This document shows positions 17,274-33,837 of a stretch of 34,157 bases of DNA, piece by piece. Origin of the DNA: an uncultured Clostridia bacterium (lineage in GTDB: Bacteria > Bacillota > Clostridia > Christensenellales > Pumilibacteraceae); assembly GCA_944376015.1 (NCBI GenBank), contig CALWBH010000074.1:1-34157 (forward strand). Direction: 5' to 3'. A program made the position numbers and the translations under genes. The notes below the pieces were generated by a model. That model ran no database searches. It was given only the letters and a program-made list of their open reading frames with translations, and had not been told where the DNA came from. Numbering within the stretch: position 1 is the stretch's first letter; each line of letters starts with the position of its first letter.

Positions 17274-17978
17274 ATGTCGAAACTTAACGAAAATTATTTT
17301 AAGACGGAAGAGGGCGGGAAAGAACCGGCGGATATAGCGTCGGTTATAGGTGCCGACGAAAAAATACTCTGGCGGGGGAAGCCCAAAAAATCCGTTTATA
17401 TAGCGGGCAGAGTGTTGAGTATGTTGCCGTTCGCTCTGTTGTGGCTGGCGTTCGACGGGACGTTTATTGCGATGCTGTGTATATTCGGCTCGTCCATGCC
17501 GCTTCCTTTCATTATAGGTATCTGCGTGTTTTTCGCTTTCCATCTTGCTCCGGTGTGGATATGGATAGCGAATGTCGTCACGGCAAACAGACAGCATAAG
17601 AATCTCGAATATGCCTTTACCGACAGGCGCATAATCGTAAAGTCGGGAATAATAGGGATCGACTTCAAAAATATTTTTTACGCGGATATCGGTTCGGTAA
17701 ACCTTCGCGTGGGCATCATAGACAAAATATGCAAGACGGGCGATATTTATATAAAAAGCCGCGAAGGCGCGACGGTGCTTTACGATCTCGAAAATCCCTA
17801 TTTTCTTGTCGAACGTTTGCAGAAGATAACGCTCGACCTTAAAATGGACGCGTCTTATCCCAACGAACTCAGACCCAAAACAAACAGCGGATTCGGCACC
17901 GAGTACACCGCGGGCGAAGCCGAACAGGTCGGAAACGCCGTCTCTGCGGATAACGGCAAGGGGAAAGACGAAAAGTGA
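17274..17978 (+). CDS. membrane protein with bacterial PH (bPH_2/YdbS-like) domain
   Basis: EKILWRGKPKK, then two TM helices, then YAFTDRRIIVKSGIIG...I.Y..I..V, the usual bPH_2 architecture. RBS AAGGAGGAG. Confidence 0.7.
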   Translation: MSKLNENYFKTEEGGKEPADIASVIGADEKILWRGKPKKSVYIAGRVLSMLPFALLWLAFDGTFIAMLCIFGSSMPLPFIIGICVFFAFHLAPVWIWIANVVTANRQHKNLEYAFTDRRIIVKSGIIGIDFKNIFYADIGSVNLRVGIIDKICKTGDIYIKSREGATVLYDLENPYFLVERLQKITLDLKMDASYPNELRPKTNSGFGTEYTAGEAEQVGNAVSADNGKGKDEK

Positions 17979-23724: not shown

Positions 23725-23777
23725 CGTATTAAGGGCGTTTTATCGTGAAAGCGCAAGCCCTTGTAAGGAGCTTAAAA

Positions 23778-25553
23778 ATGGAAGAACTTATGACGAAATA
23801 TCAGAAACAGACCACGGTCAACGTCAGGGAAAAAGCGGATTTGATCTGGTCGATCGCGGACAAGCTGCGCGGATTGTACAAACCGCACGAGTACGGCAAC
23901 GCGATATTGCCGCTTTGCGTCATAAAAAGATTTTCCGATACGCTCAAACCCACAAGGGAAGCGGTGCTTGCGAAGAACAAAGAGCTTGACGAAAGACAGA
24001 TAAAAGTCAAGGAAGTTTTCCTGCGCCGCGCGGCGAACGCGCTGTTTTACAACATAAGCCCGATGTCGTTCGAAGACCTGCTCAAAGACCCCGACAATGT
24101 GGACGTGAACCTGAAAAAGTATTTGCAGGGTTTTTCGATGAACGTCATCGACATAATAGCGAAATTCGATTTCGAGAACGAGATAGACAAAATGTCGAAC
24201 GGCAACGTGCTGTATGTCGTGCTTCGCGAGTTCTGCTCGCAGAAAGCGTATCTCGGCGCGGATAAAGTGTCGGCGCAGGATATGGGTTATATCTTCGAGG
24301 AGCTCGTCAGGAAATTCTCCGAAAGCTACAACGAAGAAGCGGGGGCGCATTTCACCGCCCGCGACATTATATATCTGATGACCGACCTGCTCATCGGCGA
24401 CGACGCGGAGGAGCTTAAACGCGACGGTATCACGAAAACGGTCTACGACATGACGATGGGCACTTCGCAAATGCTCGCGTGCATGACCGAGCGCCTTGAA
24501 AGCATAGACGAAAACGCCGTCATAACCTGTTACGGTCAGGAATTCAACCCGCAGACTTACGCCATTGCCAAAGCCGATATGCTGATAAAAGGCGGCAGCG
24601 CGGATAATATGAAACTGGGCGACACCCTTTCGGACGACGCGTTCAAAGGCTATCATTTCGATTACATAATTTCCAACCCGCCTTTCGGCATAGAGTGGAA
24701 GCGCGAGCAGAAAGCCGTCGAAAAGGAGCACGAGGAAGGCGAAGCGGGGCGGTTCGGCGCGGGACTTCCGCCTGTGTCCGACGGTCAGATGCTCTTTATG
24801 CTCAACGGCGTGAGCAAACTCAAAGAAAACGGCGGCAGAATGGCTATCATTCAGAACGGCTCTCCGCTGTTCTCGGGCGACGCGGGCAGCGGCCAGAGCA
24901 ATATCCGCGGGTACCTGCTCGAAAACGACTGGCTGGAAGCGATCGTCCAGCTTCCCAACGACTTGTTTTACAATACGGGCATAGCGACTTATGTGTGGCT
25001 CGTGTGCAAGGGCAAAAAGGAAAACAGACAAGGCAAAGTACAGCTTATCGACGCAAGCAAGTGTTTCGAAAAACGCCGTAAAAGCCTGGGCAACAAGCGC
25101 AACGAGCTTTCGGGCGAGTGCGTGCGCCTTATACTCCGCGCCTATCTCGACTTTACCGACGGCGTTTACGAAGAAAACGGAAAGACGGTGGAAAGCAAGG
25201 TTTTTTCAAACGAGTTTTTCAAGTACAGAAAAGTCACCGTCGAACGTCCTTTACTGGGCGATAACGGCGGCATAGTAATGAAAAAAGGCAAGCCCGTGCC
25301 CGATCCCAAACTGCGCGATACCGAAATTATCCCTTGGGGAACGGATACCGACGAATATATGCGCAAAAACGTCCTGCCTTTCGCCCCCGACGCATGGGTC
25401 GACGAATCCAAAACAAAGACGGGTTATGAAATACCGTTCACGCGGCAGTTTTACAAGTACGTCGCGCCCCGTCGCAGCGAGGATATTTTTGCCGAGCTTA
25501 AAACGCTCGAAACGGAAGAAACCGAAATAATGAAGGAGCTTTTCGGGGAATGA
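23778..25553 (+). CDS. hsdM: Type I restriction-modification system, DNA methyltransferase subunit M (N6-adenine)
   Basis: HsdM_N-like N-terminus (DLIWSIADKLRG...), NPPF motif IV (IISNPPFGIEW), and operon context with hsdS and hsdR. Start at ATG 23778, 7 nt after AAGGAG; the track ORF starts at GTG 23745. Confidence 0.9.
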   Translation: MEELMTKYQKQTTVNVREKADLIWSIADKLRGLYKPHEYGNAILPLCVIKRFSDTLKPTREAVLAKNKELDERQIKVKEVFLRRAANALFYNISPMSFEDLLKDPDNVDVNLKKYLQGFSMNVIDIIAKFDFENEIDKMSNGNVLYVVLREFCSQKAYLGADKVSAQDMGYIFEELVRKFSESYNEEAGAHFTARDIIYLMTDLLIGDDAEELKRDGITKTVYDMTMGTSQMLACMTERLESIDENAVITCYGQEFNPQTYAIAKADMLIKGGSADNMKLGDTLSDDAFKGYHFDYIISNPPFGIEWKREQKAVEKEHEEGEAGRFGAGLPPVSDGQMLFMLNGVSKLKENGGRMAIIQNGSPLFSGDAGSGQSNIRGYLLENDWLEAIVQLPNDLFYNTGIATYVWLVCKGKKENRQGKVQLIDASKCFEKRRKSLGNKRNELSGECVRLILRAYLDFTDGVYEENGKTVESKVFSNEFFKYRKVTVERPLLGDNGGIVMKKGKPVPDPKLRDTEIIPWGTDTDEYMRKNVLPFAPDAWVDESKTKTGYEIPFTRQFYKYVAPRRSEDIFAELKTLETEETEIMKELFGE

Positions 25554-25557
25554 ATGA
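25449..25557 (+). repeat. direct repeat copy 1 (authentic hsdM 3' end + RBS + ATGA junction)
   Basis: 109 bp. Positions 25473-25557 are identical to 26635-26719 (85 of 85). The first 24 bp carry 5 mismatches. Confidence 0.95.
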
Positions 25558-26587
25558 GAAGTTGAATAAAGATTCGGAAAAAACAGGGAATATCGTCATT
25601 TACCAATTAGACGACGGCGAAACTCAAATCGACGTTAAATTCGAAGACGAAACCGTGTGGCTTACGCAAGCACAACTTTGCGAACTTTATCAGACGAGCA
25701 AAGCCAATGTAAGCGAACATATAAAAAATATTTTGGACGAAAAGGAGTTGGATGAAAATTCAGTTGTTCGGAAATTCCGAACAACTGCTTCCGACGGCAA
25801 ATCATATTCCGTATTGCATTATAATCTCGATATGATAATTTCTCTCGGATATAGAGTCAAATCGAGAATAGCGACTAATTTTCGCCGTTGGGCAACGGAA
25901 CGATTGAAAGAATATATGATCAAGGGCTTTGCGCTTGACGATAAGCGTTTGAAAGAACTTGGCGGGGGCGATTATTGGAAAGAACTGTTAGATCGTATAC
26001 GCGATATTCGATCTTCGGAAAAAGTAATGTACAGACAGGTTCTTGACTTGTACGCCACAAGCGTTGACTACGACCCAAAAAGTAACGAATCGATTGCTTT
26101 TTTCAAAACGGTTCAGAATAAATTACATTATGCGGCGCACGGTCATACTGCGGCGGAAGTAATATATCAGCGGGCAGATTCCGACGCGCCTTTTATGGGA
26201 TTAACCTCTTTTAGCGGCGATATGCCCGCAATGCAGGACATAACTGTAGCAAAAAATTACCTAACCGAAAAAGAACTGAAAATTTTGAATAATCTTGTAT
26301 CAGGATATTTCGATTTCGCGGAAGTGCAGGCGATTAAACACAACCCTATGTATATGAGCGATTATGTTAAATGTCTTGACAATATTTTGTCATCTACCGG
26401 TGAAAAGGTATTGGAAGGAGCAGGGAACGTAAGTCATATTCAGGCTATAGAAAAAGCCAAAGCCGAGTATAAAAAATATCAGGTAAAAACATTGACGTCG
26501 GTAGAAAAGGAATATTTGCATACTATCAAGGGTTTGGAAAAACAAGCGAAGCTAAAAGCCAAGGACGGCGGGCGAGAAAAGTCGTAA
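25550..26587 (+). CDS. rhuM: RhuM family protein (function unknown; recurrent passenger of Type I R-M loci)
   Basis: IVIYQLDDGETQIDVKFEDETVWLTQAQLCELYQTSKANVSEHIKNI...SVVRKFRTTASDGKSY.V..YNLDMIISLGYRVKS..ATNFRRWATERLKEY matches my memory of the RhuM (Virulence_RhuM) N-terminal signature. The ATGA overlaps the hsdM stop. Confidence 0.8.
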   Translation: MNEKLNKDSEKTGNIVIYQLDDGETQIDVKFEDETVWLTQAQLCELYQTSKANVSEHIKNILDEKELDENSVVRKFRTTASDGKSYSVLHYNLDMIISLGYRVKSRIATNFRRWATERLKEYMIKGFALDDKRLKELGGGDYWKELLDRIRDIRSSEKVMYRQVLDLYATSVDYDPKSNESIAFFKTVQNKLHYAAHGHTAAEVIYQRADSDAPFMGLTSFSGDMPAMQDITVAKNYLTEKELKILNNLVSGYFDFAEVQAIKHNPMYMSDYVKCLDNILSSTGEKVLEGAGNVSHIQAIEKAKAEYKKYQVKTLTSVEKEYLHTIKGLEKQAKLKAKDGGREKS

Positions 26588-26610
26588 TAACGAAATTAAC
26601 GATTCGTCGG

Positions 26611-26715
26611 TTTTACGATTGCGTCGCGCCTCGCCGCAGCGAGGATATTTTTGCCGAGCTTAAAACGCTCGAAACGGAAGAAACCGAAATAATGAAGGAG
26701 CTTTTCGGGGAATGA
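26611..26715 (+). pseudogene. hsdM 3'-terminal remnant (34 codons + stop, no start)
   Basis: In frame it reads FYDCVAPRRSEDIFAELKTLETEETEIMKELFGE*, against authentic FYKYVAPRRSEDIFAELKTLETEETEIMKELFGE*. There is no upstream start, and the frame differs from rhuM. Confidence 0.85.
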
Positions 26716-26719
26716 ATGA
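26611..26719 (+). repeat. direct repeat copy 2 (displaced hsdM 3' end)
   Basis: See copy 1. It includes AAGGAG, the TGA and the overlapping ATG-AAT-GA that starts the next gene. Confidence 0.95.
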
Positions 26720-27701
26720 AGAGAAAAAATGTTTGCCTTTGCATTATAGGGGCGGGTTCAGTGATAGAAACAATATTGATAAACTGAACACAGAAATGCA
26801 AATAACGCAATTTAGTGAAAGGACTCGTGTAATTTTTATTAACAAATTACAGGAGATATTAAATAAAATTACAGATAATGTTTCAATGTATAGTGGAGAA
26901 GATTTATTCAAAAACCTTTTTAATTATATTTGTATTGAAGTATATAATCTTGAAATGGATATAAACTGTAATTTTCCGAAAAAATTTATTTATAAGTATG
27001 ACGAATATGACCCTTATTTGTCCAAAAAAACAGTTTTTTTCAATATTGTTGAAAATACCATAAAAAACGATTCTTATGATAAAGTTTTAACAATTATTGA
27101 AGCAATTTTACTATGGACAAAACAAAATATAATTTATAGAATGCCTCAGATAAAATATCTTGAAAATGGTCAAGTGAAACAAACTGAATTTGATGAGATG
27201 AAAATCTTCAATCAGGTTTTCGAAAAAGAATTTGTCGGGTATCGTTTTATTGGTAATATTATAACACCGATTACAGATGAAATAGAAGTTAGTGAAATTA
27301 AAATCGGATTGGAAGTTGAATTTAATGGTTGTCGGTCGCACATTCAAAAAGCTCTTGGTTTTTTATCCGACAGGGAAAACCCCGATTATAAAAACAGTAT
27401 TAAAGAGAGTATTAGTGCGGTTGAGTCTATTTGTACGATTATTGTAAATGAACCGAAAAAAACTCTTGGTGATGCTATAAAGGCATTTGAAAAAAAAGGT
27501 TTGAAAATTCATCCATCGCTTAAAAAGGCATTTTTGGCTTTATATGGGTATGCCTCGGATCAAGGCGGGATACGTCATTCGGAAAGCTTATTCGAAAGTA
27601 ATGTAACATTTGAAGAAGCAAAATATATGCTCGTCAGTTGTTGTGCTTTTGTGAATTATTTGATTGCGGAATATGGAAAAATTAACGGTGAATCAAAATG
27701 A
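26712..27701 (+). CDS. AbiJ-like abortive-infection-type protein (AbiJ-NTD-like N-terminus + HEPN-like C-terminal domain)
   Basis: N-terminal ..FSERTRV..NKLQEIL resembles AbiJ N-terminal domains. The C-terminal NSIKESISAVESIC..I......TLGDAIKAFEKKG.KIHPSLKKAFLALYGYASDQGGIRH resembles the conserved helical AbiJ/HEPN-type module. This is from memory and no HMM was run. The start is ambiguous: ATG 26712 is coupled through the repeat junction, and ATG 26796 (MQITQFSER) is the alternative. Confidence 0.55.
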   Translation: MNEEKKCLPLHYRGGFSDRNNIDKLNTEMQITQFSERTRVIFINKLQEILNKITDNVSMYSGEDLFKNLFNYICIEVYNLEMDINCNFPKKFIYKYDEYDPYLSKKTVFFNIVENTIKNDSYDKVLTIIEAILLWTKQNIIYRMPQIKYLENGQVKQTEFDEMKIFNQVFEKEFVGYRFIGNIITPITDEIEVSEIKIGLEVEFNGCRSHIQKALGFLSDRENPDYKNSIKESISAVESICTIIVNEPKKTLGDAIKAFEKKGLKIHPSLKKAFLALYGYASDQGGIRHSESLFESNVTFEEAKYMLVSCCAFVNYLIAEYGKINGESK

Positions 27702-28972
27702 AAAATAGCGGTATAGAATGGATAGGCGAAATCCCTGAAAATTGGGAAGTAGTTAAATTAAAAAATATTTCTATAAAAATTAAAAGCGGCGGAACGCCTG
27801 AATCTAGTAATGATAAATATTATAATGGAAATATTCCATGGACAGTTATTGCAGATATGTCTAATGCGGATACGGTTTTATGCACTAAAAAATGTATAAC
27901 AGAAGAAGCTATAAAAAGTAAAAATTTAGAAATATTCAAAAAAGGTGCTTTACTTTATGCTATTTATGCTTCTGTTGGTAAAGTTTCTGAACTTGGTATT
28001 GATTCTACTATAAATCAAGCAATATTAGCGATATGTTTGAACAATAATTTGGCATATAAACAATATGCAAAGTTAATATTGAAATGCTATGAGATTTATG
28101 TTATTGCTGAGTCAAACGGAAACACTCAATTTAATTTAAATGCAGAAAAAGTTGCAAACTTTTCACTTCCTTATCCCCCTATTGACGAGCAACAGAAGAT
28201 AGCGGATTATCTGGACAAGCGGTGCGAGAATATCGACGGGCTTGTTGAGTTGCAAAACCGTATGATCGAAAAATTAAAGGAATACAAACAATCGGTCATT
28301 ACGGAAGCGGTCACAAAAGGTCTTGACCCCGCCGCAAAAATGAAAAACAGCGGCGTGGAATGGATAGGCGAAATCCCCGAAAATTGGGAAGTAAAAAGAT
28401 TAAAGAATATTTGTAAAATTAGAACAGGTAGTACATTATCAAAATCAAGTAATGAAAATTATTATTCTGACGAAGGGTTATTATGGGTAAAGCCTGATAA
28501 TTTAAGTGCATTTAGCTCGATAGAAAAAACTGCAGAATATATAAACGAAAAAGGTCAACAGCAAATAATAGAATTTCCGCCTTATACAGTTTTTGTTTGT
28601 TGTATAGGAACAATAGGAAAGATTGGTTATTCAAAATATCCTGCGTATTGTAATCAACAAATAAACGGGTTGATTTTTTATGAATCCATTTTGAAAAGAT
28701 TTGGACTATATATGATTTTTGCACAAGAAGAGCAACATTGGATTTTTTCTAATGGCAATGTTATTAAAATAATTAATGCGGTAAATCAAGGGAAAATAAA
28801 TGTTCCGATTCCCCCTATTGACGAGCAACAGAAGATAGCGGATTATCTGGACGCGAAGTGCGCGGAGATAGACAGACTTATTGAGATTAAACAAAAGAAA
28901 ATAGAAAAATTACAGGACTATAAAAAATCTTTGATATACGAATGTGTAACGGGTAAGCGGGAAATAAGTTGA
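27698..28972 (+). CDS. hsdS: Type I restriction-modification system specificity subunit S (two TRDs)
   Basis: Duplicated architecture. MKNSG(I/V)EWIGEIPENWEV opens each half, and PIDEQQKIADYLD...I(D/E)..I......IEKL(K/Q).YK(Q/K)S is the central or distal conserved helix. The ATGA overlaps the upstream stop. Confidence 0.92.
   Translation: MKNSGIEWIGEIPENWEVVKLKNISIKIKSGGTPESSNDKYYNGNIPWTVIADMSNADTVLCTKKCITEEAIKSKNLEIFKKGALLYAIYASVGKVSELGIDSTINQAILAICLNNNLAYKQYAKLILKCYEIYVIAESNGNTQFNLNAEKVANFSLPYPPIDEQQKIADYLDKRCENIDGLVELQNRMIEKLKEYKQSVITEAVTKGLDPAAKMKNSGVEWIGEIPENWEVKRLKNICKIRTGSTLSKSSNENYYSDEGLLWVKPDNLSAFSSIEKTAEYINEKGQQQIIEFPPYTVFVCCIGTIGKIGYSKYPAYCNQQINGLIFYESILKRFGLYMIFAQEEQHWIFSNGNVIKIINAVNQGKINVPIPPIDEQQKIADYLDAKCAEIDRLIEIKQKKIEKLQDYKKSLIYECVTGKREIS
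28174..28216 (+). repeat. hsdS conserved-region repeat, copy 1
   Basis: TCCCCCTATTGACGAGCAACAGAAGATAGCGGATTATCTGGAC is identical to 28810-28852 (43 of 43). A second, imperfect pair is 27698-27751 versus 28340-28393 (54 nt, 5 mismatches). Confidence 0.95.
28810..28852 (+). repeat. hsdS conserved-region repeat, copy 2
   Basis: Identical to 28174-28216. Confidence 0.95.
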
Positions 28973-29628
28973 AAAACAGAACTAAAAAAACAATTATAAT
29001 TGCAGTGATACTGCTTTTAGTGACGGCGGGCATAATAACGGGGATATATTTTATACCCGACGAAAAATTGTCCGATATTTTGCTTGCGGTTTTTGCCGCG
29101 GTTTCGGGCGGCGCGCTTACGCTTGCCGGCGTTGCCTGGACGATAAAACGACAGGACGAACTAAAACGGGAAGAAGAACGTAAAAAAGCCAAACCGAATT
29201 TTACGTTCAGAATGGTAAACGATCCGAATTACAATGTAGCCGAAGAACTCGTTTGCTTTGACGATAATTTCGGAAAATTCAAGTGTCGCGCATCTGCTTT
29301 TATAGTAAATTCGGACGGTTCGACATTTTCACTCGAACGCATTTACCATGACAACAAGTGGTATGATTTTGTTTGCAATAAAATCGTATTGCCGAAAGCG
29401 CAGGTTTACATAGACTTCAATTTCAATTATTTTGAACCTTTGATACTTGAAGTAAAAGACGTTTTGGGCAACAAATATCATTATGAGTTAAAAGTTTTAA
29501 TCCTAATGAAAGAAAAAAATTTAGATCCGAAAAATCAAGTAGTAGCGCATACTTTGCGTGAAATTCGCGAACTTACGGCGGAAGAATATGCCGCGCTTAA
29601 AATAGACGACGACAAGGGGGAAGAATGA
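28969..29628 (+). CDS. hypothetical two-TM membrane protein with ~140-aa cytoplasmic beta-rich domain (no family recognised)
   Basis: The only long ORF between hsdS and hsdR. TTG start in a TTGA overlap with the hsdS stop, and its stop is in an ATGA overlap with the hsdR start. TM1 IIIAVILLLVTAGIITGIYFI, TM2 ILLAVFAAVSGGALTLAGVAWTI, followed by KRQDELKREEERKKAK (positive-inside). The start codon is uncertain because no ATG is available before the TM helices. Confidence 0.6.
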   Translation: MKNRTKKTIIIAVILLLVTAGIITGIYFIPDEKLSDILLAVFAAVSGGALTLAGVAWTIKRQDELKREEERKKAKPNFTFRMVNDPNYNVAEELVCFDDNFGKFKCRASAFIVNSDGSTFSLERIYHDNKWYDFVCNKIVLPKAQVYIDFNFNYFEPLILEVKDVLGNKYHYELKVLILMKEKNLDPKNQVVAHTLREIRELTAEEYAALKIDDDKGEE

Positions 29629-32600
29629 TAGACCGTAGCGAAAAACGCTTTGAAAGCGACATAGAAGAATATCTGCTGACCGAAGGCGGGTACACGAAAG
29701 CGGACTGGAAGTATTTTAACAAGCGGTATGCCCTGGATCTGACGCGCATGACGGCGTTTATAAGCAATACGCAGCCGAAAATATGGAAGGTGTTTTCGGA
29801 GCGGTACGGCGCGCAAGCGGAAGAGGCGTTATACAAGCGGTTTCAGTCCGAAGTCGGAGCGCGGGGGCTGATAAGCGTACTCCGCGACGGTTTGCCCGAC
29901 GTGTCTTTGCGCGGGGCGCGGATAAAGCTGGCATACTTCAAGCCTTCGTCCGCGCTGAACGACGAGTTGAACGAGCTTTACGAGAAAAACTTTCTCGATT
30001 GCGGACGGCAGTTTTATTACAGCGAGCAGAACAGGAAGTCGGTGGACATGGTGCTTATGCTCAACGGTATACCCGTTGTCGCGCTCGAACTCAAAAACCA
30101 ACAGACGGGGCAGAGCGTAAACGACGGCGTGCGGCAATGGCAGTACGACCGCGATCCGCGCGAGCTTGTTTTCAGGTTCGACAGCCGCGTGCTGGTATAT
30201 TTCGCGGTTGACCTTTACGAAGTCCGAATGGCTACCGAGCTGAAAGGGGAAAACACGTTTTTCATGCCGTTCAATCAGGGTTCGTGCGGCGCGGGTAACG
30301 TCGGCGGCGCGGGCAACCCGCCGAGCAACGACGGCTATGCCACCGAATATCTGTGGAAAAAATTTCTTTGCCGCGAAGGGTTGCTCGGACTTTTGCAGAA
30401 ATACATAAGCCGTCAGAAAGAAACGCAGTTCTACCTCGAAAATGGCAGAATGAAGGAGCGGACGAGCGAAAAAATTATTTTCCCGCGGTATCATCAATAT
30501 GACGTCGTGGAAAAAGCGATAAGCGACGTGCGCGACAACGGCACGGGCAGAAACTATCTGATACAGCACAGCGCGGGCAGCGGCAAGTCCAACTCCATTG
30601 CGTGGCTGGTGTATCGGCTTTCCACGCTTTACGACCGCGCCGACCGCGGTATATTCGATTCGGTAATAGTCGTTACCGACAGGCGGTTGCTGAATGCGCA
30701 ATTACAGGACACGATACAGAGTTTTACGCACAAGGCGGGGCAGATTCGCACCATAAAGGACAGCGATCCGAGCGGTGATCTCGCTCAGGCTATCGCCGAC
30801 GGCGTGCCTATCATCGTGTGTACGCTTTTCCGCTTCTCGGTCATTTTCAAAGCGGGCAAAGTGCTCAACATGAAGGGCAAAAGATTCGCCGTCGTCATCG
30901 ACGAAGCGCACTCGTCGCAGAACGGCGAAAGCGCGCAAAATCTGAAATCGGTGCTTGCGGACACTACGGGCGCGGAAGAAGAGTACGACGACGATTCGGA
31001 CGGGTTCGATACCCTCGACGAAGAAATGCTCAGACACGGCATGCACGACAATCAGTCGTTTTTCGCATTCACCGCTACGCCCAAACCCAAGACTTTGCAG
31101 AAGTTCGGGCAACGGCAGGCGGACGGGACTTACAGACCTTTCCATGTATACAGCATGAAACAGGCTATCGAAGAGGGGTTTATCCTCGACGTTCTCCGCT
31201 TTTACAGCACGATAAAAAACAGTTTCGAGATCGTCAACAATACTTCGGAAAACCCCGAGCTGCTCGAGCTTCCCACCATTAAGGCGATAAGGGATTTTCA
31301 GCGCGGGTATTCGGGCACTATCGAGATGAAGACCGCCGTTATCGTCGAGCAGTTCAGGCAGATAACGCTGTCTAAAATGATAAGCGGCGGCGTTTCCCAC
31401 GCAAAAGCCATGGTCGTCACGTCGTCGCGCAAAAGCGCCGTGCAGTATTATTTCGCGATACGCAGGTATATCCGCGAGCATGGTTATACCGACGTTATGC
31501 CGCTTGTAGCGTTCTCGGGAAAGGTGAACATCGACGGCGAAGAGTACACCGAACCCGCGCTCAACAAACTGTCGGGGGTCAATATCTCGGAAGAGCAGCT
31601 CAGGTATTACTTTGCGTCAACTATGTTCAATATGCTCATAGTCGCGGACAAGTACCAGACGGGTTTCGACGAACCGCAGCTCCATACCATGTTCGTCGAC
31701 AAAAAGCTGAAAGGCGTCAAAGCCGTGCAGACTTTGTCAAGGCTCAACCGTACTTGCAAAAAGTATGATAAAACCGATACATACGTTCTCGATTTCGTCA
31801 ATACCGCAGAGGATATTCAAAAGGCGTTCGAGCCGTTCTATACGGACACTTTGCTCGAAAGCGAGATAGACCCGAACAAGCTCTACGAGATGAAACGCGA
31901 TATCGAAGGATTCGGGTTTATCGACGCCGAATCCGTGGAGAAATTCGCGGCGGCTTACGACGAGATCAGCCGTACGGCGCAAAAGAAAAGCAGTCAGGGG
32001 CTGCTCACTTCCGTTATAAAACCGACGGTGGAGCGTTATAACGCGGCGGCGACGGATACGCGCGCGTCTTTCCGCAAACTGCTCAAAGGCTTTACTCGGT
32101 TCTACGCTTTCGTAACGCAGATCATACGCATTTTCGATAAACAGTTGCATAAATTCTATTTGTTTTGCGACTGGGCGCTCAGACAGCTGCCGAAAAATCC
32201 CGTGCTTAAATGGGAAATCGATATTTCGGTAATCAACAATACGCTTACCGAAACATTTAACGGCTCCGTCTCTCTCAGCGGCAAGGATAACGTTTTCAAA
32301 CCTACCGACGACCGCGGCGGAAAAGCCGTTAAGCAGACAGAACTGCTCAATGTTATAATCGACCATATCAACGACGCGTACGGCGATAATTTCACGGACG
32401 AGGGCAAAAATATGGTTCGTTCGATCTATGCGCGGATGACGAGCGATCAGAGCGGGAAACTCGTTAAAATGGTGCGCAACAGCGACGAAGAAATGTTCGT
32501 AAAAAGCATTTTTCCCGATTATTTCGCTCTGAAATCCGAAGAATGTTATAATTCGCAATCGGACGCTTATGCGTTGCTATTTCGAGACAGCGATTATTAC

Positions 32601-32654
32601 CGTATCGTAATGGAAGAAATGGCGCGGGCGATATACAGGAAATTCAAAAAATAA
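29625..32654 (+). CDS. hsdR: Type I restriction-modification system endonuclease/translocase subunit R
   Basis: N-terminal PD-(D/E)xK nuclease (VDMVLMLNGIPVVALELKNQ), helicase motif I (QHSAGSGKSNSIAW), DEAH box (VVIDEAHSSQ), motifs III-VI (FAFTATP...QTLSRLNRT). 1009 aa. Confidence 0.92.
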   Translation: MIDRSEKRFESDIEEYLLTEGGYTKADWKYFNKRYALDLTRMTAFISNTQPKIWKVFSERYGAQAEEALYKRFQSEVGARGLISVLRDGLPDVSLRGARIKLAYFKPSSALNDELNELYEKNFLDCGRQFYYSEQNRKSVDMVLMLNGIPVVALELKNQQTGQSVNDGVRQWQYDRDPRELVFRFDSRVLVYFAVDLYEVRMATELKGENTFFMPFNQGSCGAGNVGGAGNPPSNDGYATEYLWKKFLCREGLLGLLQKYISRQKETQFYLENGRMKERTSEKIIFPRYHQYDVVEKAISDVRDNGTGRNYLIQHSAGSGKSNSIAWLVYRLSTLYDRADRGIFDSVIVVTDRRLLNAQLQDTIQSFTHKAGQIRTIKDSDPSGDLAQAIADGVPIIVCTLFRFSVIFKAGKVLNMKGKRFAVVIDEAHSSQNGESAQNLKSVLADTTGAEEEYDDDSDGFDTLDEEMLRHGMHDNQSFFAFTATPKPKTLQKFGQRQADGTYRPFHVYSMKQAIEEGFILDVLRFYSTIKNSFEIVNNTSENPELLELPTIKAIRDFQRGYSGTIEMKTAVIVEQFRQITLSKMISGGVSHAKAMVVTSSRKSAVQYYFAIRRYIREHGYTDVMPLVAFSGKVNIDGEEYTEPALNKLSGVNISEEQLRYYFASTMFNMLIVADKYQTGFDEPQLHTMFVDKKLKGVKAVQTLSRLNRTCKKYDKTDTYVLDFVNTAEDIQKAFEPFYTDTLLESEIDPNKLYEMKRDIEGFGFIDAESVEKFAAAYDEISRTAQKKSSQGLLTSVIKPTVERYNAAATDTRASFRKLLKGFTRFYAFVTQIIRIFDKQLHKFYLFCDWALRQLPKNPVLKWEIDISVINNTLTETFNGSVSLSGKDNVFKPTDDRGGKAVKQTELLNVIIDHINDAYGDNFTDEGKNMVRSIYARMTSDQSGKLVKMVRNSDEEMFVKSIFPDYFALKSEECYNSQSDAYALLFRDSDYYRIVMEEMARAIYRKFKK

Positions 32655-32859: not shown

Positions 32860-33837
32860 TTACCTTTGATCGCTCACGGTGGCGTCGCTGTTGCTTGCTT
32901 GAAGCGCGGTAAGCGGGTCGTACGGCGCGCCCGATACCGTTCCCGCAAGCAGCGCGATGTCTACGGCGTTTTCGGGAATACCCCACGAATTGCCCGAAAA
33001 CACGAATACAGCCCGATCCACGACATATCCGCGCGTGTCGTACGCCACGTTATATATAATGTCGCCAGAAGAATCGGGGTTAAGGTATGCGGGTTGACGT
33101 AAAGAATAAAAGATATTGTTGCGCACGAGCAGGTCGGATATGCCGTTCTGCGTAACGAACGCGCGGTTTACCACCCATGTCGAAGAATCTCCCGATTGCG
33201 CGGGTCCGTAAATTTTGCAATTAACGATTTCGTCGCCGTTGCCGCCCACCTGTATGAATTCTACGGGGTAGGGCGCGTCGCTCGTCATCGTCAGTCCGTC
33301 TATCGTCACGTCGTCCGCGCTGAGCAGAAACGGCACGATCGGCGCTTCGAGCAGTATTTCCGCGCCTGCATTGCCCTTTATCGTCAGCCCGGGTATGTTT
33401 ATCCCGAGCTGCTGCGTCACAGGGTATGTGCCGCTCAGCACGTTTATCACACCGTTGGGAAGAGATGCGTCCAGCGCCTCCCTCAGGGTCTGAAACGGTG
33501 CCAACCGACTTCCGTCGCCGCCCGCCGCCGCGTCCGCCTGTACGTACAGATCGAACGGATCGGTCTGGACGGGACCCGTCGCGCCCGTCGGACCTGTGGG
33601 ACCTGTAGCGCCGTTACTTCCGTTCGCGCCTGTCGCTCCCGTCGCTCCCGTCGGACCGGTCGGACCCGTGCCGCCGCCCGAGCTTGACGGACCCGTCGGA
33701 CCCATGGGACCTGTTGCGCCCGTCGGACCGGGCGGACCCGTAGGACCGGGCGGACCGGGAATGCCCGCGGGACCCGTTACAAAACATAAATATCGGCAAG
33801 GCGGACAACCGCCGCACCCGTTGTTATCGAAAAACAT
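32860..33837 (-). CDS. collagen-like triple-helix-repeat protein with C-terminal right-handed beta-helix (DUF1565/pectin-lyase-fold-like) domain
   Basis: Cys-rich N-terminus (5 Cys in the first 18 aa), 23 G-X-Y triplets, then [31 protein letters not shown]...GLTIKG, a DUF1565-type beta-helix start. RBS GGAGGG lies 6 nt before the ATG. Confidence 0.85.
33571..33774 (-). repeat. GXY (mostly GPT/GAT) collagen-like triplet tract
   Basis: [30 protein letters not shown] [SSG] [36 protein letters not shown]. One triplet lacks Gly at position 1. The DNA is a degenerate 9-bp repeat (GGACCCGTCGG-like on the plus strand). Confidence 0.9.

Follow-up and report, generated by a model that had tools for sequence, protein, structure and literature searches.

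Type I systems of restriction-modification (R-M) are textbook three-subunit enzymes, and the question raised by the present stretch of DNA is what a membrane protein gene is doing inside one of their operons. The stretch, which we refer to as the window, comprises 34,157 nucleotides of contig CALWBH010000074.1 from an uncultured Clostridia bacterium (assembly GCA_944376015.1; Christensenellales, Pumilibacteraceae), and it contains a 219-residue open reading frame (ORF), here called gene X (28969..29628, + strand), without a match in Pfam, NCBIfam, PHROGs or PADLOC. Gene X lies between hsdS, which encodes the specificity subunit (27698..28972, +; Pfam PF01420), and hsdR, which encodes the restriction and translocase subunit at its full length of 1009 residues (29625..32654, +; HSDR_N, ResIII, SWI2_SNF2 and a T1R_D3-like domain). 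As a sequence-only reading of this DNA had described, it overlaps both neighbors: the TTG start (28969-28971) overlaps the hsdS stop codon TGA (28970-28972; context aagTTGAaa), and the stop codon of X, also TGA (29626-28), overlaps the hsdR ATG (29625-27; context gaaATGAta). X is a genuine protein-coding gene; its family is solid, as is the association of that family with hsdR, and the databases searched had recorded neither. Members travel as cargo in restriction and defense loci, most often directly 5' of hsdR, and X is a good candidate for a new anti-phage accessory or effector, a concept that has precedents.

A membrane protein family adjoining hsdR

X is not the orphan that it had been taken for. 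A word-indexed search with the single X sequence returned 9 clusters, and a full search of 1.84 billion representatives with a hidden Markov model (HMM) returned 882 at E ≤ 1e-3 (495 at E ≤ 1e-10 and 94 at E ≤ 1e-30). A profile search of a 5.8-billion-protein set yielded 224 clusters, for which the sole name given was "hypothetical protein" and none of which carried a precomputed Pfam domain. The family occurs in Clostridia (Christensenellales and Eubacteriales) and in some Bacilli, nearly all of these hosts being represented by gut-metagenome assemblies. Most members are 300-450 residues long, with additional N-terminal transmembrane helices (median length 339, range 219-557), and X of the window is the minimal form of the family, with two such helices. 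Scans of Pfam, NCBIfam, PHROGs and PADLOC with the single X sequence gave only chance-level matches (Claudin_2, MFS, a tail assembly protein, and HORMA, the last with an E-value of 0.0086 against the PADLOC model), 106 diverse members scanned against Pfam and PADLOC showed no common family, and a sequence-profile search of the PDB returned no match at E ≤ 5. A match to a housekeeping family, an outcome that the sequence-only reading had set against its own proposal, appeared in none of Pfam, NCBIfam, PHROGs, PADLOC or PDB. X is likewise absent from PADLOC-DB v2.0.0, none of the 106 members matches a PDC or HEC candidate family, and no relative was found among IMG/VR viral contigs, INPHARED phages or PLSDB plasmids. 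A family known mostly from gut-metagenome assemblies, and missing from these phage, plasmid and defense-gene collections, exposes a gap in cultured-genome surveys. As a separate observation, one of the 106 aligned members matches the PADLOC model of the type I specificity subunit (E 1.4e-17) and could be either an HsdS-X fusion or a read-through gene call.

Whether homologues neighbor hsdR was surveyed in 72 loci from Clostridia and Bacilli, retrieved with the peptide pattern TL[ATV]GVAWTI, of which the 71 with an intact ORF were analyzed; all 71 X proteins fall into one BLAST cluster. X lies directly 5' of hsdR in 31 of the 71, the junctions being overlaps of 1, 4, 8 or 14 nt (one of 38 nt when the longest ORF is taken) or gaps of 0-7 nt, which in nearly every case do not exceed 3 nt. 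Two genes intervene between X and hsdR in one locus, and X is 3' of hsdR in three. The same arrangement holds in eight of the nine metagenomic clusters that were looked up, where X is again directly upstream of hsdR, and the abundant clusters P0030, P0161 and P0191 have the order hsdM-(AbiJ_NTD4)-hsdS-X-hsdR. X of the ninth cluster (P0004) is flanked by a helix-turn-helix (HTH) gene on one side and a GmrSD gene on the other, and the surrounding gene cluster also has two methyltransferases and another GmrSD. Throughout the type I loci X takes the final place ahead of hsdR, and RhuM, AbiJ-like and other embedded genes occupy the interval between hsdM and hsdS or that between hsdS and X. X constitutes a fourth, membrane-embedded gene, and in dozens of gut Clostridia species overlapping codons join it to hsdR. 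For an embedded accessory gene it is unusual in being a multi-domain membrane protein, in obeying a positional rule that places it against hsdR, and in forming hundreds of clusters restricted to poorly cultured gut Firmicutes.

In 39 other loci, for which two flanking genes on each side of X were annotated, the defense-related neighbors include ResIII (7 loci), further HsdR (3), GmrSD (3), type III enzymes and a type ISP enzyme (ResIII + Eco57I), as well as an SLFN-like helicase, AbiTii, ABC-3C CTD6, AAA_21, the YobI ATPase, methyltransferases and the candidate families PDC-S01 and PDC-S11. HTH regulators and integrases also occur among the neighbors. Most X loci without an adjoining hsdR border other restriction or defense genes. 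The survey thereby favors the sequence-only reading, which had named scattering of homologues over unrelated contexts as a refuting outcome.

Directly upstream of X, 14 loci, of which two have no type I system, encode a small protein of ~100-128 residues that consists of a coiled coil and a C-terminal transmembrane anchor (FSWISFAVSTLIA); its coordinates include L008:5137-5457, L012:9-335, L015:7344-7649, L026:6988-7302, L039:7335-7649, L041:7128-7484, L045:6902-7258, L047:7038-7334, L078:5411-5797 and L079:6921-7271. This tail-anchored protein matches no Pfam family, the window has no such gene, and it may be a membrane partner of X. That the long X members with N-terminal coiled coils are fusions with it was rejected, because its HMM matches no family member. 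Other unannotated genes in the hsdS-X interval form a group of 294-417 residues (L044:1674-2558, L080:5929-7176, L084:5955-7208), one member of which has a TIR-like motif (DVFISHANKD…), and a family of 175-188 residues (L052:1898-2425, L057:6934-7494); both are further candidates for embedded genes.

The architecture proposed for X by the sequence-only reading, two transmembrane helices and a cytoplasmic beta-rich domain without a recognizable motif, agrees with hydropathy, with structure prediction and with the null scans of Pfam, NCBIfam, PADLOC and PDB. Kyte-Doolittle peaks span residues 8-28 and 36-58. The first helix (TM1, residues 8-28; 28990..29052, +) follows the basic N-terminus MKNRTKK and is joined by a loop of 7 residues to the second (TM2, residues 36-60; 29074..29148, +). 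An AlphaFold2 model of X, built on a 9-sequence alignment, has helices at 2-27 and 31-74, nine strands at 78-201 with a predicted local distance difference test score (pLDDT) of 85-92, and a short C-terminal helix. In the model the TM2 helix continues unbroken into a stalk, KRQDELKREEERKKA, and the segment closes with a KAKPxF hinge whose P76 is invariant (29149..29199, +). The stalk had been described as strongly basic; it is better called mixed-charge (8 K/R and 5 D/E), and it is helical. The nine strands form a predicted beta-sandwich (residues 78-201; 29200..29571, +). The model of an abundant 318-residue homologue (P0030; 93 sequences, mean pLDDT 84) shows the same C-terminal half after four additional helices, its stalk helix comprising residues 123-165, and among 255 sequences the stalk falls into length classes of 16 (173 sequences), 27 (49) and 52-54 residues (23). 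The beta domain is predicted to be cytoplasmic because, under the positive-inside rule, the charges flanking the conserved transmembrane helix are strongly asymmetric across the family, with a mean of 6.1 K+R in the 20 residues after it versus 0.6 in the loop before it.

Column conservation, computed from the alignment of the 106 diverse members, is highest in the cytoplasmic half of TM2 (G47 G48 x L T51 L52 x G54 V55 A56 W57 T58 I59, within the signature GGxLTLxGVAWTIK), in which V55 is invariant. Mean conservation is 0.81 over TM2 residues 47-60 and 0.73 in the KAKPxF hinge, versus 0.37 in TM1 and, within the beta domain, 0.31 at residues 80-113 and 0.17 at 177-193; the sandwich nevertheless retains an invariant N114 and D164 and an almost invariant S115 and Y172. 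The cytoplasmic half of TM2 is conserved on every face of the helix, whereas TM1 is not, which in a two-helix hairpin suggests TM2-TM2 packing in an oligomer. As modeled, X would consist of an element at the membrane interface that is conserved, a connector that is rigid and a soluble domain whose surface evolves fast. Its invariant motif, GGxLTLxGVAWTI, and the 219-residue minimal form make X easy to test.

Foldseek searches of the PDB with both models (X and P0030) gave nothing at E ≤ 1e-3, the best matches (E ~5e-3) being archaeal type IV pilins and generic Ig-like sandwiches. The pilins (8fk7, 6w8u) resemble X in having a hydrophobic helix that extends as a long helix, on which an Ig-like beta-sandwich packs, but these matches are not significant (E ~5e-3, TM-score 0.2-0.35), and a pilin identity was rejected: X has an extra preceding transmembrane helix and no class III signal peptide, and its sandwich is assigned to the cytoplasm by the positive-inside rule, whereas that of a pilin is outside the cell. 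Fold matches below 1e-3 came from BFVD alone and are two uncharacterized viral proteins of ~250 residues (A0A8S5R7G4, E 4.6e-6, and A0A6G5Y3T4, E 3.5e-5); with a TM-score of ~0.35 and no confirmation by sequence, they are either homologues or share the helix-plus-sandwich layout alone.

The public gene call for X (P0001) starts at GTG 29005 and yields 207 residues, losing the basic N-terminus and part of TM1. We prefer TTG 28969 because the Shine-Dalgarno (SD) energy there is -4.3 kcal/mol (weak) versus +2.0 kcal/mol at the GTG (no SD), and because the basic residues preceding TM1 align with the K/N-K of the long homologues. In addition, an 83-84%-identical orthologue retains both the TTG and the same hsdS overlap. 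The hsdS gene likewise has a weak SD (-3.0 kcal/mol) and a start within an ATGA overlap, and the TTG of X is probably reached by termination-reinitiation.

The sequence-only reading had considered translation of hsdR likely to depend on that of X, a claim that the junction weakens. The SD of hsdR, AAGGGGGAAG (29614..29623, +), lies within the last X codons and forms a strong anti-SD duplex (-10.3 kcal/mol); it is likewise inside the 3' end of X in L004, L010 and L012, and this design recurs in distant loci, where the ATG of hsdR falls 14 nt inside X. In L075, L021 and L064 hsdS is followed directly by hsdR, the X homologue being elsewhere. Translational coupling of X and hsdR is thus plausible, but because hsdR has its own strong SD and occurs without a preceding X in these three loci, it does not strictly depend on translation of X.

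The coding status of X is supported by its conservation down to ~27% identity and by its substitution pattern: against the 84%-identical orthologue in locus L001, the ratio of nonsynonymous to synonymous substitution rates (dN/dS) is 0.50, and nearly all replacements cluster in two surface segments, residues 84-113 and 177-193. Over the same comparison the dN/dS of hsdM and hsdR is 0.04 and 0.09. The X ORF is intact in 71 of the 72 genome loci.

Exchange of X independently of the enzyme core

Is X a fixed part of the enzyme, or a passenger? The window operon is a compositional mosaic, in which the GC content at third codon positions (GC3) is about 0.67 in the outer genes (hsdM 0.67, hsdR 0.665) and 0.24-0.41 in the four inner ones (RhuM 0.41, AbiJ_NTD4-like 0.24, hsdS 0.27 and X 0.40); the overall GC content of hsdS is 32.5%. 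Across 25 loci, hsdM and hsdR differ by a mean GC3 of 0.008, whereas X lies 0.17 and hsdS 0.14 below hsdR. The combination of low-GC3 hsdS and X with host-like hsdM and hsdR recurs in most of the 25 loci, namely those whose hosts are not AT-rich.

Divergence follows the same division. In 22 complete loci, pairwise identity correlates with that of HsdR at a Spearman rho of 0.83 for HsdM and 0.42 for HsdS, versus 0.14 for the C-terminal domain of X and 0.07 for its transmembrane region, and in pairs whose HsdR proteins are >80% identical, HsdM is 92% identical and the X C-terminal domain 45%. Because its divergence is uncorrelated with that of HsdR and its GC3 tracks that of hsdS, X is exchanged independently of the enzyme core, as hsdS is, and behaves as swappable cargo. 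The lack of co-divergence argues against a co-evolving X-HsdR interface; binding of X to a conserved surface would be compatible with it.

Many defense genes lying within type I, BREX and Hma loci have been uncovered by guilt-by-embedding (bioRxiv 10.1101/2024.01.29.577857), TgvAB of Vibrio VPI-2 being a further example (PMC11411939). Like the PDC families of PADLOC, which are uncharacterized genes nested in type I operons, X is embedded in a known defense system. It differs from them in its absence from PADLOC-DB v2.0.0 and in its position, just before hsdR, where the RhuM and AbiJ-like genes lie between hsdM and hsdS.

Possible roles of X

What X does at this position can be approached from its anatomy, its genomic context and its precedents, and from these we tentatively favor, at somewhat less than even confidence, a membrane effector of the abortive-infection type that carries its sensor in the cytoplasm. 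That sensor would be the variable beta-sandwich, which a rigid charged helix supports and which would recognize an infection cue, such as a phage protein or a restriction complex that has been perturbed; the stalk helix would relay the signal to TM2, whose cytoplasmic half is invariant and glycine-rich; and self-association of TM2 would then compromise the membrane and stop the infected cell. X and hsdR would be co-expressed because their reading frames overlap. The sequence-only reading had raised abortive infection on the grounds that small membrane proteins are common among such effectors, an idea that stays plausible and has a precedent in RonA, discussed below, the role itself being one that we infer.

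Among known effectors, Cap15 (CBASS) and PycTM (Pycsar) combine an N-terminal transmembrane hairpin with a small cytoplasmic beta-rich domain, and ligand binding drives them to disrupt the membrane. X resembles them in overall architecture and size but has no sequence similarity to them, and no cyclase or CD-NTase occurs in the X operon (hsdM, RhuM, AbiJ_NTD4-like, hsdS, X, hsdR) or among the neighbor families of the other loci. A Cap15- or PycTM-type identity was rejected for want of an adjoining cyclase gene. For either model, the top 50 PDB matches include neither Cap15 nor a nucleotide-binding beta-barrel or cNMP-binding fold, the models being ligand-free and the matches all weak. A holin was likewise rejected: Phage_holin_3_6 matches weakly in 2 of the 106 members, X has no endolysin neighbor, and IMG/VR, INPHARED and PLSDB hold no relatives.

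Several points weigh against an effector. The role is drawn from anatomy, context and precedent; the genome sample was retrieved with one peptide pattern and is hence biased towards the closer subfamily; and a minority of homologues lie amid non-defense genes (PPDK, YfhO, peptide deformylase, NUDIX). In addition, the beta-sandwich has no counterpart among known ligand-binding or sensor domains (best PDB E-value 5e-3), and the conserved TM2 could instead contact a partner, either the small tail-anchored protein of the 14 loci or the extra N-terminal helices of the long forms. Finally, a fully autonomous effector would leave the strict position before hsdR unexplained.

On another reading, the X family would couple ATP-dependent restriction nucleases (HsdR foremost, with GmrSD, Res and type ISP enzymes besides) to the cytoplasmic membrane, as a guard or as a tether, a proposal that we regard as doubtful. 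In its guard version, inhibited or failed restriction would be converted into membrane depolarization, making X a Gram-positive counterpart of Ronin and PrrC beside an intact R-M system; in its tether version, the nuclease would be stationed at the site of DNA entry. Were such coupling real, X would be a widespread, previously unseen fourth component of type I R-M systems that links restriction to the membrane in gut Clostridia.

As a guard, X would be a latent membrane toxin held by HsdR or HsdM2S through its beta-sandwich; an Ocr- or ArdA-type DNA mimic that disables or remodels the complex would free X, whereupon TM2 would oligomerize and the cell would be killed or arrested. We consider this specific version unlikely, although it has precedents. 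The classic case of an embedded gene that backs up restriction is PrrC, which becomes active once a phage inhibits the R-M enzyme, and X occupies the slot that PrrC holds in the prr locus. All 31 abutting loci have X immediately before hsdR, which fits a need for co-expression, and X also adjoins other ATP-dependent restriction nucleases (GmrSD, ResIII and the type ISP enzyme). The second precedent is a membrane protein: in the Ronin system of E. coli ECOR55, RonA, a 61-residue transmembrane toxin linked to hsdMS, is toxic alone, is neutralized by HsdMS, is triggered by Ocr or ArdA, and has been proposed to act as an effector of programmed cell death by disrupting the inner membrane (bioRxiv 10.1101/2023.04.06.535777). 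Arguing against a guard are the absence of co-divergence between X and HsdR at the level of identity given above, the GC3 of X, which is foreign relative to that of hsdR, and the fact that in the majority of loci no type I system adjoins X.

RonA and X are both membrane proteins genetically linked to type I R-M subunits, so that an association which had been considered unusual is not unprecedented, although we found no paper on a membrane protein between hsdS and hsdR. However, RonA has one transmembrane helix and no soluble domain in its 61 residues, whereas X has 219 residues, two transmembrane helices and a 125-residue beta domain; Ronin loci lack hsdR, whereas X directly precedes a full-length one; and the hosts of RonA are Proteobacteria, those of X Clostridia and Bacilli. 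These features set X apart from RonA, and homology is not expected. PrrC is almost exclusively embedded in type I R-M systems (bioRxiv 10.1101/2024.01.29.577857), and X shares the embedding within an hsd operon, with the same arrangement in 31 of 71 loci, but only ~45% of X loci are type I-embedded. PrrC and RloC are soluble proteins that pair an ABC-ATPase with a tRNA anticodon nuclease, whereas X is a membrane protein without an ATPase or nuclease signature. An identity of X with PrrC or RloC is ruled out by the lack of any Pfam, NCBIfam or PADLOC match and by a model made of transmembrane helices and a beta-sandwich. If X is an effector or a guard, it adds a new family to the few backups wired to restriction (PrrC, Ronin, PARIS), and would be the first such backup with a structured cytoplasmic sensor on a membrane stalk.

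The tether version, in which X would be a non-toxic scaffold whose stalked domain binds HsdR (and elsewhere other nucleases) at the point of DNA entry and so spares the nucleoid, seems to us quite improbable. An association of EcoKI with the cytoplasmic membrane has been reported, and the defense systems Zorya and Kiwa, both anchored in the membrane, target DNA as it comes in. The predicted anatomy would suit a tether, since a rigid stalk of discrete length (16, 27 or 52-54 residues) holds a beta-sandwich of protein-binding type off the membrane, and in type I loci X stands beside the nuclease gene, not the methylase or specificity gene, as it stands beside GmrSD or ResIII elsewhere. A passive anchor, however, has no need of a near-invariant transmembrane segment; X and HsdR do not co-diverge; a single adaptor domain would have to recognize unrelated nucleases; and some members have no nuclease neighbor. 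If the tether were nonetheless correct, X would provide a molecular basis for the membrane organization of restriction.

We hold it to be just as improbable that X is an autonomous membrane protein that is not abortive, acting in superinfection exclusion, by a block on DNA entry at the inner face of the membrane, or outside defense altogether, and that its place in the operon is an accident of recombination at the variable hsdS side. Its cargo-like composition and shuffling, together with the non-defense neighborhoods of some members, are in keeping with such a protein, and occupancy of the hsdS-hsdR junction could persist by descent and by homologous exchange via the conserved hsdS 3' and hsdR 5' ends. 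However, an enrichment beside hsdR in 31 of 71 loci, spread over HsdR clades that are ~40% identical, is extreme for an unrelated gene; no member occurs in the viral contigs, phage genomes and plasmids searched, which are the usual home of exclusion genes; and extracellular exposure of X is limited to the 7-residue loop. That the ORF is a non-functional or non-coding spacer or a mis-called frame, as its TTG start with a weak SD might suggest, is effectively refuted by the conservation data, namely hundreds of homologues with an invariant motif and a confidently predicted fold and an ORF intact in all but one of the 72 genome loci, while hsdS of the same operon has an equally weak SD and a like overlap.

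Other genes of the operon and window

The first gene of the operon is hsdM, encoding the methylase subunit (23745..25553 as the longest ORF, +; Pfam HsdM_N and N6_Mtase). Its true start is likely ATG 23778 rather than GTG 23745: the SD energy is -7.4 kcal/mol at the former versus -4.3 kcal/mol at the latter, and translation from ATG 23778 gives 591 residues, a length equal to that of the orthologue in L001. Two embedded genes follow, one of the RhuM family (25550..26587, +; PADLOC candidate PDC-S05) and one of the AbiJ_NTD4 family (26712..27701, +; PADLOC candidate PDC-S32). The latter recurs between hsdM and hsdS in the X-bearing loci L001, L047, L067, L083, L086 and L090, and is the fastest-evolving gene between the window and L001 (63% amino-acid identity, dN/dS 0.73). 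A direct repeat of 115 nt, 94% identical, lies on both sides of the RhuM-family gene (25443-25557 and 26605-26719). Each copy contains the hsdM 3' end (or its duplicate), an SD and an ATGA junction, and the RhuM and AbiJ-like genes therefore begin in identical contexts; the repeat looks like a trace left when a cassette was inserted by recombination. Scans of the operon for promoters and terminators gave scores no better than those of shuffled sequence.

The remaining genes of the window are housekeeping (a LytTR two-component system, GH3 glycosidases, ADH, LDH, malic enzyme and Suf, the Suf genes being named via the orthologous locus), and the hsd operon is therefore an isolated defense locus in the chromosome. 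One of the other genes encodes a 234-residue bPH_2 (bacterial PH domain) protein (17274-17978, +) that also consists of a membrane hairpin and a small beta domain but has no sequence relation to X. On the 3' side of hsdR, a 325-residue ORF (32860-33837, - strand) contains long collagen-like repeats and resembles BclA-type exosporium or surface proteins; it is kept in L001 at 72-81% nucleotide identity.

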